A DNA stretch of 64,000 nucleotides from contig OX597821.1 of assembly GCA_951406725.2 (NCBI GenBank), positions 31,620,001-31,684,000 of the forward strand. Reading direction: 5' to 3'. Below, one piece after another: positions 1,287 through 49,215 of this stretch. Position 1 is the stretch's first letter. Each line of letters begins with the position of its first letter. This DNA comes from Octopus vulgaris (Eukaryota). The notes below the pieces were generated by a model that saw only the letters and a list, made by a program, of their open reading frames with translations, was not told where the DNA came from and did no database searches. The position numbers and the translations under genes were made by a program.

Positions 1287-3462
1287 ATATAACAAAGCAT
1301 AATTCGCTAGATCTTTGAATATTGCACGTCAAAAATCTAATCTGTTCAAATTATAATCAACGTTGATATGAAATATCAGTTCCTATCAATTTGATATATA
1401 TCTTTATTTTTCAGACCGGTGCTGAGGTGGCACTTCTAATCGACCTGTAGAAACAATGATCCGTTATTGATATTTTGTATGGAATATCGCATCATCTTTA
1501 AACAGCCTCCCAATAGTATATTCAATATACAATTACTACAAGTTGCATTGCGGCTTCTTGTACGTTGGAGACTATTTGTCACCGTTAGCAAGCAGGCTTA
1601 AACCTACCGAATATATAAGATATGTATCTAAGAAATATTTCTTTTACTAACGCTACACTTTATAAAACATAATTAACAGTTACAATCATTTAGTTTGTAA
1701 ATAATTTTTGATAATATAATATTTAACAGTTCAATGGCTTACTGTAACAATTGTTCGGGTAATAGCAGCTTCTGTAATGCATTCAGGGTCTTTCTTTTAA
1801 AATCGTTCAAAGCTATTTTACTGGGCATAACTATAGTAATGTTGCTATTACTTTTATACTACAGCTTCCAATTTCGTTTTGCAAGACCATTCGATGGTGT
1901 GACCGTGAAACATACTAGTTACTATATGTCTCTGTTACTGAATAAAGTTTTCACATATGCTTGCGCGATGTTTGTCACATGAGCATAGGTGTAATAGGCA
2001 ATAAGCGGAGATGACTAGAAGAATGTATGTTATATCATAAGGGAACCATTCTGCATACCACTCCGTTTCACAGCGTATTTCTTCACAACATAATAAAATT
2101 CGCAATCTCCCATTTTCCTCTAGAGTATGTAATATTCAGTTTGTGGTATTATTTTAAAATATTAATTCGCATTTAAGAGTTTAATTTTAAGTGATTAAAG
2201 CTTTTTTCAGTTGGGTACATTAGCTAAACACAAGCTTACTAATGTTTATCAATAAAATGTGCTGCGAATATACTATGTATGTAAATGGTACGTAGTGAAA
2301 CCACACCTTACTTCAATCATCTTAAAAACCATTAATTACGTTATTTCAAGATGAAGAAGTTGATTGTAGGATCCAACATAAATATTTCAAGTAAATAAGA
2401 ATGGAAAGCTGACGTAAAATACAATTTTGTAATAACAGCACGTTTATCTGCAAGGGAATTAAACGGTGTTGTCATTCTATTCTTTTGATGTTGAAGTTCA
2501 AGAGAAAAAGACGAGATAATAAATCTCTAGTGAACAAAATTATTTGCCCAAATATATTGTTTTAAAGCTGTGTATAATTGTTTAAATTATTAGTTATAAA
2601 AAATATATAGCACCAAATTTCAAAGACAATATCACGCTATTAGTTTAGGTGAAAACGATAATAAATCATTATCAACGAATTACGTCAAGAGAAGACAAAT
2701 ACATACAAACTATAGTGCTAATACCATATTGCGTTGGTGTTCGAAAAATGAGAGTAATAAATATCGTGATATTGACGCCATTAACCACGACAAATACAAA
2801 TAAGATAATCTTGAAAAAAAACTATATAGGAGGCGAAATAATAAAACTGATTAAAGTAACAGAAATTTGGAGGAATTCTTTATTATGAATATGTGACTTA
2901 AAGGTACCTTGATATCACTGAAGCCCTTAATAATAGCGAACCTAATTAATATAATTAATATTTAATATTTTTGATATAACAACCCATGACTTTCTGTCAT
3001 AACATATGATTTGAATTTCTTTAACATATTACAGAATTCAGTATTTCATGGAAGGAAATTGGAAACTGTAGAATATTTAGGGGTTGTTGCGGCGTGTAAC
3101 AATGTTTCGTCTCTTCTTTAAGAAAATAGCCGCCATATTTGAAACAGAAATAAAGCTAATAAAACCAATGTTATCGTGTGCAGCTGGAAGCATATAAACG
3201 GTTGCTGATTAAAATTTAATTGACACGGAAATATGACCCAGCTGATCTTTATACCAGGTATAAGATGCAACTTTTAAAACGAAAACAGCCATTTAAACTT
3301 TAAGGTTCAATTAATTCATTTTCATTAGTTTACATGGGCACTACTGAAACAAATTTACTGGTGTATATCATGGGATCAAAACAATGACTTTAAGGAATGA
3401 ACCAGCAAACCTGAATCCAATGCTAAATTCAAAATATCCTTTTAAAACGTACTGTATAGAAT

Positions 3463-3503
<41 letters not shown>

Positions 3504-3518
3504 ATATATGTATGTATG

Positions 3519-3605
<87 letters not shown>

Positions 3606-3787
3606 AAAGGGCTTAGTAAAATAAATTACTTTGCCGCATACTGAACTCATTAGAAATAGCAGCTAAAAAAACTTTTTTAAAACTATTTCCAATACTTAAA
3701 GAAAATCTCTCTCGTAAAGTGTTTGCTCAATTCAACTCACGAAAGTATGAGGGTAGAAACATTAAAAAATCAAATGCAAAGGTTATT

Positions 3788-3839
3788 TGAGAACGTACGT
3801 TTCAAGATTAGTCAAAAAGACATTTCTATCATCAGCTCA
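3788..3839 (-). ncRNA. Minimal type I hammerhead ribozyme (inverted copy)
   Basis: Reverse complement of the motif at 4103-4154. Confidence 0.72.
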
Positions 3840-4102
3840 GAACTCCCTGGTTTGGATTTGAAAACACTGAAAGTAGGAGCATACCTTTTCGGCCTCCCAT
3901 CGTCTCCGAAGATCTACTCGAAACTAACAGTGCCAGCAAATTCGAACATGCAAGCGAAGAATTTCTGCTCTCCCCCTTCCACCAGCGTGGGTTAAAATCA
4001 GCAAACAACATGCTTTTTTTCGGTAAAATCCGAGGCATTAAATAGAGAGATATGAATTATAATTTCCACTTTCAGTGTTTTCAAATCCAAACCAGGGAGT
4101 TC

Positions 4103-4154
4103 TGAGCTGATGATAGAAATGTCTTTTTGACTAATCTTGAAACGTACGTTCTCA
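4103..4154 (+). ncRNA. Minimal type I hammerhead ribozyme
   Basis: TGAG-CTGATGA-(t aga aat gtc ttttt gac taa tct t)-GAAA-CGTACG-TT-CTCA. Helix I TGAG/CTCA, intact core, palindromic helix III, GUU triplet. Helix II is imperfect. Confidence 0.75.
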
Positions 4155-4658
4155 AATAACCTTTGCATTTGATTTTTTAATGTTTCTACCCTCATACATT
4201 CGTGAGTTGAATTGAGCAAACACTTTACGAGAGAGATTTTCTTTAAGTATTGGAAATAGTTTTAAAAAGTTTTTTTAGCTGCTATTTCTAATGAGTTCAG
4301 TATGCGGCAAAGTAATTTATTTTACTAAGCCCTTTTATATAATGTAAAAATTTGAATTCGCCTTAAATGGTCCCTTTGCATACTGAATACTTGGTGAAAT
4401 TGATTAATTAATTAATTTTACCCTCAATTGTTGAAATTATAATTCATATCTCTCTATTTAATGCCTCGGATTTTACCGAAAAAAAGCATGTTGTTTGCTG
4501 ATTTTAACCCACGCTGGTGGAAGGGGAGAGCAGAAATTCTTCGCTTGCATGTTCGAATTTGCTGGCACTGTTAGTTTCGAGTAGATCTTCGGAGACGATG
4601 GGAGGCCGAAAAGGTATGCTCCTACTTTCAGTGTTTTCAAATCCAAACCAGGGAGTTC

Positions 4659-4710
4659 TGAGCTGATGATAGAAATGTCTTTTTGACTAATCTTGAAACG
4701 TACGTTCTCA
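4659..4710 (+). ncRNA. Minimal type I hammerhead ribozyme (unit 2)
   Basis: Same motif as 4103-4154, 556 bp downstream. Confidence 0.75.
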
Positions 4711-5215
4711 AATAACCTTTGCATTTGATTTTTTAATGTTTCTACCCTCATACTTTCGTGAGTTGAATTGAGCAAACACTTTACGAGAGAGATTTTCTTT
4801 AAGTATTGGAAATAGTTTTAAAAAAGTTTTTTTAGCTGCTATTTCTAATGAGTTCAGTATGCGGCAAAGTAATTTATGTTACTAAGCCCTTTTATATAAT
4901 GTAAAAATTTGAATTCGCCTTAAATGGTCCCTTTGCATACTGAATACTTGGTGAAATTGATTAATTAATTAATTTTACCCTCAATTGTTGAAATTATAAT
5001 TCATATCTCTCTATTTAATGCCTCGGATTTTACCGAAAAAAGCATGTTGTTTGCTGATTTTAACCCACGCTGGTGGAAGGGGGAGAGCAGAAATTCTTCG
5101 CTTGCATGTTCGAATTTGCTGGCACTGTTAGTTTCGAGTAGATCTTCGGAGACGATGGGAGGCCGAAAAGGTATGCTCCTACTTTCAGTGTTTTCAAATC
5201 CAAACCAGGGAGTTC

Positions 5216-5267
5216 TGAGCTGATGATAGAAATGTCTTTTTGACTAATCTTGAAACGTACGTTCTCA
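5216..5267 (+). ncRNA. Minimal type I hammerhead ribozyme (unit 3)
   Basis: Same motif, 557 bp downstream of 4659. Confidence 0.75.
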
Positions 5268-5547
5268 AATAACCTTTGCATTTGATTTTTTAATGTTTCT
5301 ACCCTCATACTTTCGTGAGTTGAATTGAGCAAACACTTTACGAGGGAGATTTTCTTTAAGTATTGGAAATAGTTTTAAAAAAGTTTTTTTAGCTGCTATT
5401 TCTAATGAGTTCAGTATGCGGCAAAGTAATTTATTTTACTAAGCCCTTTTATATAATGTAAAAATTTGAATTCGCCTTAAATGGTCCCTTTGCATACTGA
5501 ATACTTGGTGAAATTGATTAATTAATTAATTTTACCCTCAATTGTTG

Positions 5548-5610
<63 letters not shown>

Positions 5611-6448: not shown

Positions 6449-6972
6449 AAAAATTGAGGGTGATAAATTAATATTAATTTTAATATCAATTTAAAACCAG
6501 TAGTCCAGCATTCAAAAAATCTGAGGAGTCAGAGAAAATTCAAATACATGTGTATATTGGCAGGGCTGGCCTGCTAGGTAGCCGGCCAGAATGCTAGAAA
6601 TAGATCATAAATGATCAAACTACAAGGGAAATTCTCTAGAGGAAGAATTCAGCGAACACCAGAACCAAATTTGGCGGGCAGGACATATGAAAAATTAAAT
6701 AAAAAACAGACTTAAATGCATACCTCGGTTTCGGTCTTAACAAAAGAATTACTTGCATAATTCAAGTGTCCGTGACTTCTTCAGTACATTCGGTCCTCGA
6801 GATGCAAACTGAAAGACTAACCCCAGCTCTCTGTGTCAAGACAGACACGTGCTTAGTCTTACTGATTACATCGGGAATAAAATTTCAAATGTCTTGGTTC
6901 CGGCGCGCTAAGAGACTCCTGAAGCGAATAATTCACTGCGGGTAAAGCTTACTACTAGGGAACGTATTTATT

Positions 6973-6975
<3 letters not shown>
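6449..6975 (-). mobile_element. (TA)n-flanked hammerhead-bearing element
   Basis: Contains the HHR at 6715-6790. Its left terminus (aattgagggt..tcaattt..accag) resembles the reverse complement of the 3' terminus of the 3599-5553 element. Confidence 0.75.
6715..6790 (-). ncRNA. Type I hammerhead ribozyme
   Basis: Minus strand: AATGTA-CTGAAGA-agtc..gaatta/taattc..gacc-GAAA-CCGAGG-TA-TGCATT. Six-bp helix I, intact core, GUA triplet. Confidence 0.8.
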
Positions 6976-7054
<79 letters not shown>

Positions 7055-7640: not shown

Positions 7641-8620
7641 ATGTGTGTGTGTTTGTCTGAGAATATGCCCATGCTTATAAAGTCTAACTTCGATGTTTTG
7701 CATTGAAAAACAAAATCACGCTTCTTTCAATTTCATGATTTAGCATTAGTGAACATTAGTATGACACTTGCAAACTAGAAAAACACGCAAAGCTCAGAAA
7801 ATCTCAATGCAACATATACACACCTAAATATTTACTGAGATAAGCATTATGTTTCCTTTATTTGAGTTATATTTAGAATACAAAATGCACTATCTCCGCT
7901 TTCCTTTCCAACATTCAATTTTGCGGAGAATTTTTTGATTAAATGTAGTTCCATCGCTGTTTGGTATTGCGGATTGTCCCTTGCACATTATTAAAAGAAA
8001 ACATTTTTGAATTTTCCGTCGTTGCATATTTCCAGATGCTTACTTAATGGAATCTTACGCAATTCCTCTCGTCGGATATGTTGCCTGTGGATTCTTGCAC
8101 ATTGGCAGAGGGAATTATTTGTTTCGCCAATGTAATTTTCTTTGAAGTTAATACAGTATATGAGGTTATTTTGTTTTGCATTTCCTATCTGCAAAAACAA
8201 AGCCTCATATACTGCATTAGCTTCCCAAACTGTACAGAAAATTACATTGGCAAACAAAATAATTCATTTTGCTGACGTGTTTTTTTAATGCAAAACATCG
8301 ACGTTACACAGTATTAACAGGGACATTTTCCCAAACACACACACATGCACTCAGAGAGTCACTTCATCAAGGGATTGTTTCCAAAATTGAATGTAAAAGG
8401 CAGTAAAACGGGAAAAGGAAAAAGGGAAAGAGGGAGGGGAGAGAAAGTAAGAAAGTGATGATTACACCTCACCTGTTTTTTTTCGAACAGGTCGCCACCC
8501 TTAAACCCATTCTAATACAATGGTAAATTACTAAATGAATAAATGAAGGGTGAATAGGAAGGGAGATCTGTCATCTCTCTCTACCTATCTATCAATCGAT
8601 CTGTCTATCTATCAACATAT
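7090..8620 (-). mobile_element. Decayed Penelope-like element remnant: GIY-YIG endonuclease C-terminus, duplicated 3' end and inverted segments
   Basis: Minus strand ~7915-8180 gives NLIYCINFKENYIGETNNSL..RIHRQHIRREELRKIPLSKHLEIC..MELHLIKKFSAKLN. An inverted copy (LIYCISFPNCTENYIG) lies at 8195-8275. 7385-7480 resembles 7860-7950, and 7150-7250 plus 7540-7715 are inverted at 8280-8570. Confidence 0.8.
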
Positions 8621-24893: not shown

Positions 24894-24896
<3 letters not shown>

Positions 24897-25085
24897 TTTA
24901 TTCAAAGCAGCAGAAAATTCAGCAAAATCTGTTACTCTGAGTTTCTCGTTGCCGTTCATCAAACTGTCTGAGGAACGGCAACGAGAAACTTAGAGTAACA
25001 GATTTTGTTGAATTTTCTGCTGCTTTAAATAAAGTATTTGAGTACTCTTTTTTACCACCTTGTTTTACATTTATGTGTTTACTCC

Positions 25086-25087
<2 letters not shown>
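24894..25087 (+). mobile_element. Miniature fold-back hammerhead element, family D, inside (TA)n
   Basis: Arms 24894-24960 and 24970-25036, followed by a tail ending ttactccgg. Homologous to 30884-31112. Confidence 0.82.
24964..25001 (+). ncRNA. Minimal type I hammerhead ribozyme
   Basis: CTGT-CTGAGGA-acg-gcaa-cga-GAAA-cttagag-TA-ACAG. Helix I CTGT/ACAG, GUA triplet, helix II only 2 bp in this copy. Confidence 0.7.
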
Positions 25088-25118
<31 letters not shown>

Positions 25119-25176
25119 ATAAAAATAGTGAGACAACAAAAGAAAGAAAGAGACCTCGATATTATGTGAATAGAAG

Positions 25177-25220
<44 letters not shown>

Positions 25221-26096: not shown

Positions 26097-26550
26097 ATCA
26101 AATAGGGTAATAAAATAAATTATTATTACCAGTGGCCTAGCACAAAAGACAAATTAGTCGTTAGACTATATATTTTTCGTATAGAAATATAATAAAAGGC
26201 TTCCGAATAAGGAAGCGTAGTGCTAGAAACCAGAAAAAGAGGGATAAATTCATGAAAGGAGTGAAAATTAAAAACATTTACCATCTCAGCTATATCCCAG
26301 ACCGATCGGTTTCTACCTATTTTTAGCAAACTCACAGAATATATTCGCCAGGCCAGGTTCTTCAGTGGGAAGCCTTCGTAATCCTAGACGCACAGGCTGT
26401 AGAACCTGGCCTGGCAAATATATTCTGTGTGTTTGCTAAAAATATGTAGAAACCGTTCGGTCTGGGATATAGCTGAGATGGTAAATGTTTTTAATCTTCA
26501 TTCCTTTCATGAATTTATCCCTTTTTGTGATTATAGCACTACGCTTCCTT
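26097..26550 (-). mobile_element. Hammerhead element with inverted 5' segment
   Basis: 26209-26365 is inverted at 26397-26550. Left end adjoins a TG/TA microsatellite with the motif agggt..accagtgg. Confidence 0.82.
26295..26370 (-). ncRNA. Type I hammerhead ribozyme, canonical core
   Basis: Minus strand: TCCCA-CTGAAGA-acct..aggta-GAAA-CCGATCGG-TC-TGGGA. Five-bp helix I, 8-nt palindromic helix III, GUC triplet. Confidence 0.88.
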
Positions 26551-26659
26551 AGTACTTCGCCTAGTACTTATTCTATCAATACCTTTGCCGAACCGCTACG
26601 TAGCATTAACATAAACGCACCAGCATCTGCTGAGGTGGTGGGGAAACAAAACACACACT

Positions 26660-30746: not shown

Positions 30747-31157
<411 letters not shown>

Positions 31158-31597: not shown

Positions 31598-31650
<53 letters not shown>

Positions 31651-31792
31651 ATGATTATAAGCATAATTACAATTAAGGTTCAGCAAAAATTGCTTCAACA
31701 CATACCGAAATTTAGAAATAGCAGTTATATACTATTCCACTACCATAAGATATATCCCAGACAGAAATACTCTCAACTCACACACACACACA

Positions 31793-47080: not shown

Positions 47081-47126
<46 letters not shown>

Positions 47127-47387
47127 CAATTAAGGACAACTACTTAATAAGGAAAACTTAACAAGAAATTGTCAGGTAGATAGCGTGAAAACCTCATAAG
47201 AGAAAAAATTTCGAAAATAATTATTTCTTATTGAACATATTAATTTATATATAGAAGGCATTATACATACATGCCAGATGGCATTATACATACATGCCAC
47301 ACGCTAAGGGGGACAATTAGTCATTTCTACCAAAAATATTACTAATCCCACCGAATGCAATTTTTCAAAGTAAGACATTTAAAAAAT

Positions 47388-47435
47388 AGACCTGTATCAC
47401 AGTGATTTCATACTTACGTATTCATCAGCAGGCCT
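47388..47435 (-). ncRNA. Minimal type I hammerhead ribozyme
   Basis: Minus strand: AGGCCTG-CTGATGA-ATAC-gtaa-GTAT-GAAA-TCAC-t-GTGA-TA-CAGGTCT. Confidence 0.9.
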
Positions 47436-47863
47436 GGATATATCATACATAAACGACCCTGCCTCGCCTAAGCCGATCAGCTAACTGATCAACATCAACG
47501 AAGCACATGGGTGAGTTTACATATATTACATCCTGTAAATGTCAGACTTTTTACGAATTGCATTTCGGGAAAGGAAAAGTTTTTTTCGGAATAAAAATTT
47601 AGCAATTAAGGACAACTACTTAATAAGGAAAACTTAACAAGAAATTGTCAGGTAGGTAGCGTGAAAACCTCATAAGAGAAAAAATTTCGAAAATAATTAT
47701 TTCTTATTGAACATATTAATTTATATATAGAGGGCATTATACATACATGCCAGATGGCATTATACATACATGCCACACGCTAAGAGGGACAATTAGTCAT
47801 TTCTACCAAAAATATTACTAATCCCACCGAATGCAATTTTTCAAAGTAAGACATTTAAAAAAT

Positions 47864-47911
47864 AGACCTGTATCACAGTGATTTCATACTTACGTATTCA
47901 TCAGCAGGCCT
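47864..47911 (-). ncRNA. Minimal type I hammerhead ribozyme (unit 2)
   Basis: Identical motif 476 bp from the first. Confidence 0.9.
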
Positions 47912-48338
47912 GGATATATCATACATAAACGACCCTGCCTCGCCTAAGCCGACCAGCTAACTGATCAACATCAACGAAGCACATGGGTGAGTTTACATAT
48001 ATTACATCCTGATAAATGCCAGACTTTTACGAATTGCATTTCGGGAAAGGAAAAGTTTTTTCGGAATAAAAATTTAGCAAATAAGGACAACTACTTAATA
48101 AGGAAAACTTAACAAGAAATTGTCAGGTAGATAGCGTGAAAACCTCATAAGAGAAAAAATTTCGAAAATAATTATTTCTTATTGAACATATTAATTTATG
48201 TATAGAGGCCATTATACATACATGCCAGATGGCATTATACATACATGCCACACGCTAAGAGGGACAATTAGTCATTTCTACCAAAAATATTACGAATCCC
48301 ACCGAATGCAATTTTTCAAAGTAAGACATTTAAAAAAT

Positions 48339-48386
48339 AGGCCTGTATCACAGTGATTTCATACTTACGTATTCATCAGCAGGCCT
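48339..48386 (-). ncRNA. Minimal type I hammerhead ribozyme (unit 3)
   Basis: Same motif; one substitution turns the helix I G-U pair into G-C (CAGGCCT). Confidence 0.9.
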
Positions 48387-48875
48387 GGATATATCATACA
48401 TAAACGACCCTGCCTCGCCTAAGCCGATCAGCTAGCTGATCAACATCAACGAAGCACATGTCTTACTTTGAAAAATTGCATTCGGTGGGATTAGTAATAT
48501 TTTTGGTAGAAATGACTAATTGTCCCTCTTAGCGTGTGGCATGTATGTATAATGCCATCTGGCATGTATGTATAATGCCCTCTATATATAAATTAATATG
48601 TTCAATAAGAAATAATTATTTTCGAATTTGTTTCTCTTATGAGGTTTTCACGCTATCTACCTGACAATTTCTTGTTAAGTTTTCCTTATTAAGTAGTTGT
48701 CCTTAATTGCTAAATTTTTATTCCGAAAAAACTTTTCCTTTCCCGAAATGCAATTCGTAAAAAGTCTGACATTTACAGGATGTAATATATGTAAACTCAC
48801 CCATGTGCTTCGTTGATGTTGATCAGTTAGCTGATCGGCTTAGGCGAGGCAGGGTCGTTTATGTATGATATATCC

Positions 48876-48923
48876 AGGCCTGCTGATGAATACGTAAGTA
48901 TGAAATCACTGTGATACAGGTCT
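48876..48923 (+). ncRNA. Minimal type I hammerhead ribozyme (inverted segment)
   Basis: AGGCCTG-CTGATGA-ATACgtaaGTAT-GAAA-TCACtGTGA-TA-CAGGTCT. Seven-bp helix I, 4-bp helix II with GNRA loop, AUA triplet. Confidence 0.9.
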
Positions 48924-49215
48924 ATTTTTTAAATGTCTTACTTTGAAAAATTGCATTCGGTGGGATTAGTAATATTTTTGGTAGAAATGACTAATTGTCC
49001 CTCTTAGCGTGTGGCATGTATGTATAATGCCATCTGGCATGTATGTATAATGCCCTCTATATATAAATTATATATATATATATATATATATGTTTGAGTG
49101 TGTGTCGCAGTGCGTGTTTGTCCCCCACCATCGCTTGACGATAGACAATAGTTTAGGTCCCTTAACATAGTGGTTCGGCAAATAGACAGATAAAATAAGT
49201 ACTAAGCTTAAAAAG

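Follow-up and report, generated by a model that had tools for sequence, protein, structure and literature searches.

The window (the whole stretch of 64,000 nucleotides that was analysed) contains an element of about 1.95 kb that is composed of a 469-bp inverted arm followed by 2.67 direct units of 556-557 bp and set in (TA)n (Table 1). This bears out the first-pass annotation, which had described an inverted segment followed by about 2.7 near-identical 557-bp units in (TA)n. The inverted arm is 99% identical to the reverse complement of its two source segments in the unit, and between the five pieces of the element there are 3 substitutions and 3 single-unit indels. The unit has a GC content of about 0.32, lacks an LTR and is non-coding. 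Of the ATG frames that the element contains, the longest is antisense, measures 92 aa and crosses loop II of the hammerhead motif, a site at which abundant variants differ in length by one base, and a coding role was rejected, the frames being short and antisense. An ORF check of the element returned no reading frame for reverse transcriptase (RT) and GIY-YIG endonuclease.

Table 1. Features of the element in the window and the comparison element; u, position within unit 2
Feature	Position	Strand	Remarks
Left (TA)n target microsatellite	3466-3605		
Inverted arm	3598-4066	-	u367-557 then u1-277; outer end is fixed site A
Hammerhead motif 4	3788-3839	-	in inverted arm; core 3835; predicted cut between 3792 and 3791
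Head-to-head junction	4066-4068		two 5'-truncated arms meet; one extra C at 4067
Unit 1	4068-4623	+	556 bp
Hammerhead motif 1	4103-4154	+	CTGATGA core 4107; predicted cut after 4150 (GUU)
Unit 2	4624-5180	+	557 bp; reference for numbering, u1 to u557
Hammerhead motif 2	4659-4710	+	core 4663; predicted cut after 4706; U-U at stem II base, palindromic stem III
Partial unit 3	5181-~5555	+	u1-375, 0.67 unit; outer end is fixed site B, merging into (TA)n
Hammerhead motif 3	5216-5267	+	core 5220; predicted cut after 5263
Motif upstream of site A	5393-5422	+	u213-242; common to diverged sister families
Tail	5458-5555	+	about 97 bases between sites A and B; only at right end of element
Right (TA)n target microsatellite	5552-5610		
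Comparison element, 476-bp family	47125-49070		same two-arm, two-end layout; tail about 115 bases

The 2.8-Gb genome holds 1,565 exact matches to a 26-base word that covers the ribozyme and none to its reversed control, so that the repeat is not due to chance; the dispersed homologs whose absence would have told against the annotation are present. The first 100 matches occupy 49 loci, so that several hundred loci carry the word; with a pattern taken from the sequence upstream of the arm end, 5,610 matches were obtained, among them diverged sister families with hammerheads of their own. Family units measure 545 to about 565 bp and share about 85 to 99% identity with the window's unit; the array is a young member of a dispersed multi-copy family that ranges from dimers to multimers. 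One hundred elements were mapped in three samples: the 40 best-scoring loci, 39 of them usable (one holds a gap); 40 elements in position order on contig 1, taken from the 26-base word matches (four loci of the first sample skipped, one dropped for a gap, one holding two elements); and 21 loci from matches to the upstream pattern that lack the exact ribozyme word.

The second element is built on a 476-bp unit and displays the same layout, as had been claimed, with no extended similarity to the 557-bp unit (best local match 11 bases, E 0.22). In its family the ends lie near u358 and u476, and 12 of 16 two-armed copies have one of each kind; each of the remaining four has an end off site, and none of the 16 is A/A or B/B. 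The closest copies of both families are 97-99% identical, which indicates recent activity of both. [quoted passage not shown] The processivity limit suggested to lie behind the common size of about 1.95 kb is ruled out by the size spread of both families (0.3-8 kb): the 39 best-scoring copies span 919-8,029 bp, the 40 position-ordered copies 316-3,962 bp (median about 1.0 kb, none at 1.9-2.0 kb), and 18 other copies of the 476-bp family about 0.6-1.4 kb. Given this spread, the size match is chance, the other option that had been offered. At two loci (L126 and L052) elements of both types stand side by side at one TA run, indicating shared targeting.

Short fold-back elements beside TA runs were also observed in the window (24896-25087, 26097-26551, 30887-31112 and 31645-31760), each with many relatives among the fetched loci; the last is a member of a sister family of the 557-bp unit. 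At window position 3916, nearly all contig depth in public runs X15, X16 and X4 carries a different letter, so that these samples may have few or no members of the window's subfamily. All 29 bins of the unit are covered by contigs of four runs from three studies, presumed to be RNA; this coverage, having no silent control, was not counted.

Predicted hammerhead motifs

The three plus-strand motifs and their GUU cut sites at 4150, 4706 and 5263 lie where they had been annotated, and a fourth, in the inverted arm, had been missed. The motif carries the features of a type I hammerhead (core CUGANGA and GAAA, a UH triplet and three stems), with U-U instead of G-C at position 10.1-11.1, and an Rfam scan gave 0 matches at the gathering score. 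Abundant variants retain the core and the stems but differ at N7, in loop II and at the cleavage base (H17), and one stem II pair runs through C-G, U-G and U-A. In 14 chosen variants 97.3% of cells are paired, against 24-48% in slid controls, and 4 of 13 pairs are changed on both sides, a number reached by 5 of 500 shuffles; three of these four rest on two sister-family sequences. The predicted ribozyme fold is thus conserved, with compensatory changes.

For the monomer motif the hammerhead fold was calculated at -2.7 kcal/mol against -7.2 kcal/mol for the best fold, a cost of 4.5, and the pair probability of stem I in the circular unit is 0.02, so that the hammerhead is not the ground state, which counts against the ribozyme reading. 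The isolated motif is no more stable than its shuffles (z 0.48), whereas the whole monomer is (z -6.5). In the dimer, the double-hammerhead fold reaches -20.0 kcal/mol against -23.6 kcal/mol for the best fold, and on these models the predicted ribozyme probably needs a dimer for activity. A palindromic stem III is typical of dimer-type hammerheads (PMC4209133), and the axolotl HHR_Amex2, which the motif resembles in the U-U at the base of stem II and in a short, two-pair stem III with a tetraloop, cleaves, and does so better as a dimer (PMC7229834). Nevertheless, among Xenopus retrozyme dimers 1 of 9 cleaved in vitro. Elsewhere in the window (6640-6980, minus strand, core near 6790), another type I hammerhead-like motif lies in a segment that ends at (TA)n and is unrelated to both arrays.

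Arm ends and the Penelope-like elements of this genome

Two arms are present in 69 of the 100 mapped elements, and they stand head to head in all 69. The outer ends fall at two fixed places, site A at u265-292 (mostly 274-287, about u277) and site B at u360-380 (about u372), and 64 of the 69 copies have one of each (26/28, 26/28 and 12/13 by sample), the exceptions being one B/B (L022), one A/A (L245) and three with an off-site end. For the 66 copies with both ends on site, 64 are mixed, compared with 50% under free choice (p = 3e-17); two sampled loci (L252 and L253) look like one duplicated locus. A (TA)n run adjoins 130 of 135 arm 3' ends (66/67 and 64/68), within which a target-site duplication is unreadable. 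The inner ends are scattered and the junction position differs from copy to copy, either arm can be the longer one, and the gap at the junction ranges from -11 to +29 bases of overlap or extra sequence, mostly within 6 (49 junctions). The motif at u213-242 is a candidate recognition signal.

This genome contains apparently intact autonomous PLEs of two types, for which the labels Hydra and Neptune are tentative and follow the motif descriptions in PMC8557442. In the Hydra-type PLE the unit measures 2,590 bp, and the protein, of 708 aa, carries RWK, DKT and CxCX5C motifs. Its insertions show head-to-head arms and tandem units in (TA)n with ends at u2415-2419 and u2486, and one of each end was found in 13 of the 16 loci showing both, the other three having an off-site end (19 loci were examined, picked mostly for matches on both strands). 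A 202-aa RT piece of this lineage (L225-L244, e.g. L226:17-2606) is 100% identical in all 150 scored of 13,638 candidates, and from its sequence the lineage is extremely young. The Neptune-type PLE occurs in many (TA)n-flanked copies. Its intact frame of 781 codons encodes RT and GIY-YIG domains as well as a CX4CxxC linker, and the element carries a hammerhead-like motif of the U3-A8 type and, about 40 bases further along, a second end. Descriptions of PLEs give them a single frame; in this Neptune type, a 479-codon frame lies upstream of the RT-endonuclease frame and overlaps it (L108:1318-2757 and 2676-5021; also L098 and L106), has no Pfam family over the cut-off, and could represent either a second gene or an N-terminal extension that has been frameshifted. 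Copies of a second Hydra-like lineage (L325-L339) end at one of two distances past the endonuclease, about 500 or about 850 bases, from which a tail of about 350 bases would follow, far beyond published tails. The tails of this genome's own PLEs extend from about 30 to about 350 bases. Within the window itself, segments 1-424 and 25111-25191 are remnants with about 81% identity to the non-coding 3' end of the Hydra-type PLE, the former being a two-armed pair that ends in (AT)n, and a decayed GIY-YIG fragment of a Neptune-like PLE lies at 7901-8167 (minus strand, 36% identity).

PLE fragments occur near 9 of 98 family loci, all outside the elements, and no unit attached to a PLE reading frame was found among the loci examined. 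In the lineages sampled, PLE 3' ends have no resemblance to the 557- or 476-bp unit (best 11 bases, E 0.46). The partner search comprised a GIY-YIG family search (best 150 of 6,136 candidates scored), two protein searches (best 150 of 13,638 and of 15,550) and two sister-family DNA searches (best 40 of 2,390 and of 1,764); among these best-scored candidates, which belong to Neptune- and Hydra-type lineages, no autonomous PLE shares sequence with the unit. We thus infer the mobilising enzyme from layout alone, which counts against the PLE reading. The possibility that the unit is the terminal repeat of an autonomous PLE was rejected, as the unit matches near PLEs (L113, L114, L115, L325, L341 and L350) are set apart from the 3' ends of these PLEs; near L113-L115, where the full sequence was inspected, they are separate insertions in TA runs.

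Integration route and its alternatives

Because the autonomous PLEs of this genome have the same layout, the 557-bp family is very probably mobilised by a PLE. The fuller reading, a non-coding hammerhead repeat pasted into (TA)n in trans by a PLE reverse transcriptase-endonuclease as two arms with A and B ends, is likely; within it, priming from both strands is favoured, and we lean cautiously towards a linear multimer rather than a circle as the usual template. The array would be transcribed into a multi-unit RNA, whose hammerheads may cut it, probably as dimers, to 557-nt monomers that may circularise. The PLE protein would nick both strands of the TA repeat, and the free DNA ends would prime reverse transcription inside the RNA, one at A and the other at B, where AT-rich letters could help priming. 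Both cDNAs would extend upstream for variable lengths, through ribozyme sites, on an uncut multimer or a circle, and joining of the two cDNA ends with few shared or extra bases would create the inversion. With purified anole PLE protein, both strands are nicked and then extended from two sites inside the RNA, between which the tail lies, and the protein works mainly on unprocessed RNA (PMC11167929). In the same in vitro system, the start sites showed no strand difference and no target-RNA homology (PMC11167929); the rule of one A and one B is therefore not predicted by that activity alone, and this counts against the scheme.

Opposite arms of one locus differ by a median of 0.0%, against a 3.2% difference from a typical locus elsewhere (51 loci, 216 unmasked sites), the former value being the lower in 51 of 51; this near identity indicates that both arms derive from one template variant, although in 18 of 51 loci opposite arms are no closer than the single nearest other locus. 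Arms traverse up to 8-9 ribozyme sites, and inner ends within u78-92, around the cut site, number 2 of 119 with 3.2 expected (a sample chosen for the intact ribozyme word and thus biased against such ends) and 1 of 34 in a second sample. A footprint of cleavage in vivo was accordingly rejected, and the template should be an uncut multimer or a circle. Rolling-circle copying of one circular 557-nt monomer, which is compatible with PLE mobilisation, is a plausible source of the tandem units, if not the one we prefer: it would account for the passage through ribozyme sites and the avoidance of the cut site, agrees with the strong fold of the monomer and with circles shown for coral, mussel and axolotl retrozymes (PMC7229834), and suits near-uniform long arrays such as L165 and L251, the latter with one 555-bp unit and eight of 545 bp, of which a single unit deviates, at one site. 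In other arrays (L043, L055, L057 and L058), however, variants are common to subsets of units, and such mosaics mean that a circular monomer template is not established. Within-locus transitions fall at family-wide polymorphisms in 14 of 39 cases against a 13.5% background (p = 4e-4), whereas transversions show no excess (2/36); gene conversion after insertion or mutable sites are alternative causes of these variants. The autonomous 2.6-kb PLE units, moreover, form like tandems. The circular-junction reads that the first-pass annotation proposed could not discriminate here, since the genomic tandem holds the same junction as a circle.

With the same element and enzyme, a single priming event could suffice if the cDNA folded back and primed itself, and the endonuclease resolved the second end at the other site. 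As a general account this main rival is unlikely, but it may explain a minority of insertions. Junctions are symmetric within 3 bases in 7 of 61 copies where 0.8 are expected (p = 1e-5), three markers in L057 form a block pattern mirrored about the junction and not about the outer ends, and published accounts read palindromes at inverted PLE junctions as self-priming (PMC3846280) and the tail as endonuclease resolution (PMC8557442). Nevertheless, 54 of 61 junctions are asymmetric, with offsets up to 273 bases, either arm can be longer, the inner unit of one arm of L033 differs at 3 sites from both full units of the other arm, and symmetric junctions are also expected if two enzymes reach the same RNA end. 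Following a suggestion in bioRxiv 2026.07.22.740005, unequal crossover could have expanded one PLE terminal repeat locally into a satellite, which would be the tandem part; we hold this to be highly improbable. In L057, a private two-base change occurs in three neighbouring units and is missing from the opposite arm, which agrees with local duplication or conversion within long arrays, but satellite growth cannot explain why copies at hundreds of dispersed sites have TA flanks, ends fixed at A and B and inversion points that vary, and no unit was found joined to a PLE reading frame among the loci examined. An assembly artefact at the repeat can practically be set aside as the origin of the inversion. 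The annotation had asked for the 4066-4068 junction in raw reads, and no piece bridging 4066/4068 is among the contig pieces listed from public runs; yet 11 other inversion joints of the family are bridged in contigs of two independent public runs of unrecorded kind, and the 69 two-armed copies have differing junctions and rule-bound outer ends.

Returning to PLE integration primed from both strands, a more speculative version, which we hold as doubtful, is that one asymmetric PLE complex makes each insertion and is obliged to use two different start sites on one and the same RNA, one for each nicked TA strand, with a linear uncut multimer as the usual template. In that case the hammerhead would be retained for a different step of the life cycle, the model in which retrozymes spread by rolling circles would have to be revised, and the reconstitution of Penelope integration would have a minimal substrate in the 557-nt unit.

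Relation to known systems

In LINE-1 twin priming, two nicked strands prime two cDNAs and so generate an inversion, the two parts of which do not overlap, one starting at the poly(A) tail. The 557-bp family differs in that its two arms represent one stretch of sequence, begin at two internal sites that are fixed, and lack poly(A). Its layout is of the kind seen in PLEs, for which tandem and inverted arrangements, a one-ended tail and TA targets have been published (Craig et al. 2021, PMC8557442; Arkhipova et al. 2013, PMC3846280). Endonuclease-bearing PLEs of the Hydra and Neptune clades form partial tandems like those of the family (PMC8557442; Frangieh et al. 2024, PMC11167929; PMC3846280), and the likeness extends to an adjacent inverted, 5'-truncated copy, a tail at one end, a palindromic stem III hammerhead and the (TA)n target, which is reported for Hydra, Neptune and Naiad PLEs. 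Unlike PLEs, the unit has no RT or GIY-YIG reading frame, and its tail of about 97 bases exceeds the 30-40 given in the PLE texts compared, which counts against the assignment. Non-autonomous Chlamys PLEs such as MRC1 are likewise non-coding, multi-copy, head-to-tail and PLE-moved (PMC8557442); as described there, they share 3' sequence with an autonomous partner and mostly lack hammerheads, whereas the 557-bp unit keeps its ribozyme.

Animal retrozymes have been described as tandem hammerhead repeats with PLEs suggested as the mover (Cervera and de la Pena 2020, PMC7229834), and as non-autonomous PLE derivatives on the basis of co-occurrence and terminal-repeat kinship (Li, Clavereau and Pollet 2026, bioRxiv 10.64898/2026.07.22.740005). 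The retrozyme class, the PLE link and the one-ended tail are thus already published; near-strict A+B pairing, or a PLE footprint for a retrozyme, was not found in the literature searched, most subscription papers lying outside its coverage. The origin of the PLE inverted arm and one-sided tail, and the mover of animal retrozymes, are stated as open in the texts compared (PMC8557442, PMC7229834, bioRxiv 2026.07.22.740005). The 557-bp family offers structural evidence for PLE-style integration of a retrozyme, and the rule of one A and one B, counted here, must be explained by any mechanism. Furthermore, a short RNA and apparently intact candidate enzymes in the same genome make a direct test possible.

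The non-LTR retrozymes of both studies resemble the 557-bp family as non-coding, low-GC, dispersed tandems with one type I hammerhead in each unit, found beside PLEs (PMC7229834; bioRxiv 10.64898/2026.07.22.740005). Circles have been shown for the retrozymes of coral, mussel and axolotl (PMC7229834), whereas the cleavage of the 557-bp unit is predicted from its genomic sequence. The units of 545-565 bp compare with 170-400 nt in PMC7229834 and 51-972 bp in bioRxiv 10.64898/2026.07.22.740005, and the terminal-repeat kinship reported in the latter has no counterpart as a sequence match among the PLE lineages sampled here. The inverted arm, the two fixed ends and the TA target of the 557-bp family are not described for retrozymes in the main texts compared, the word 'inverted' having 0 occurrences in that of PMC7229834. 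The element in the window is best read as an animal non-LTR retrozyme, most likely copied by a PLE enzyme that primes from both strands of a TA target.
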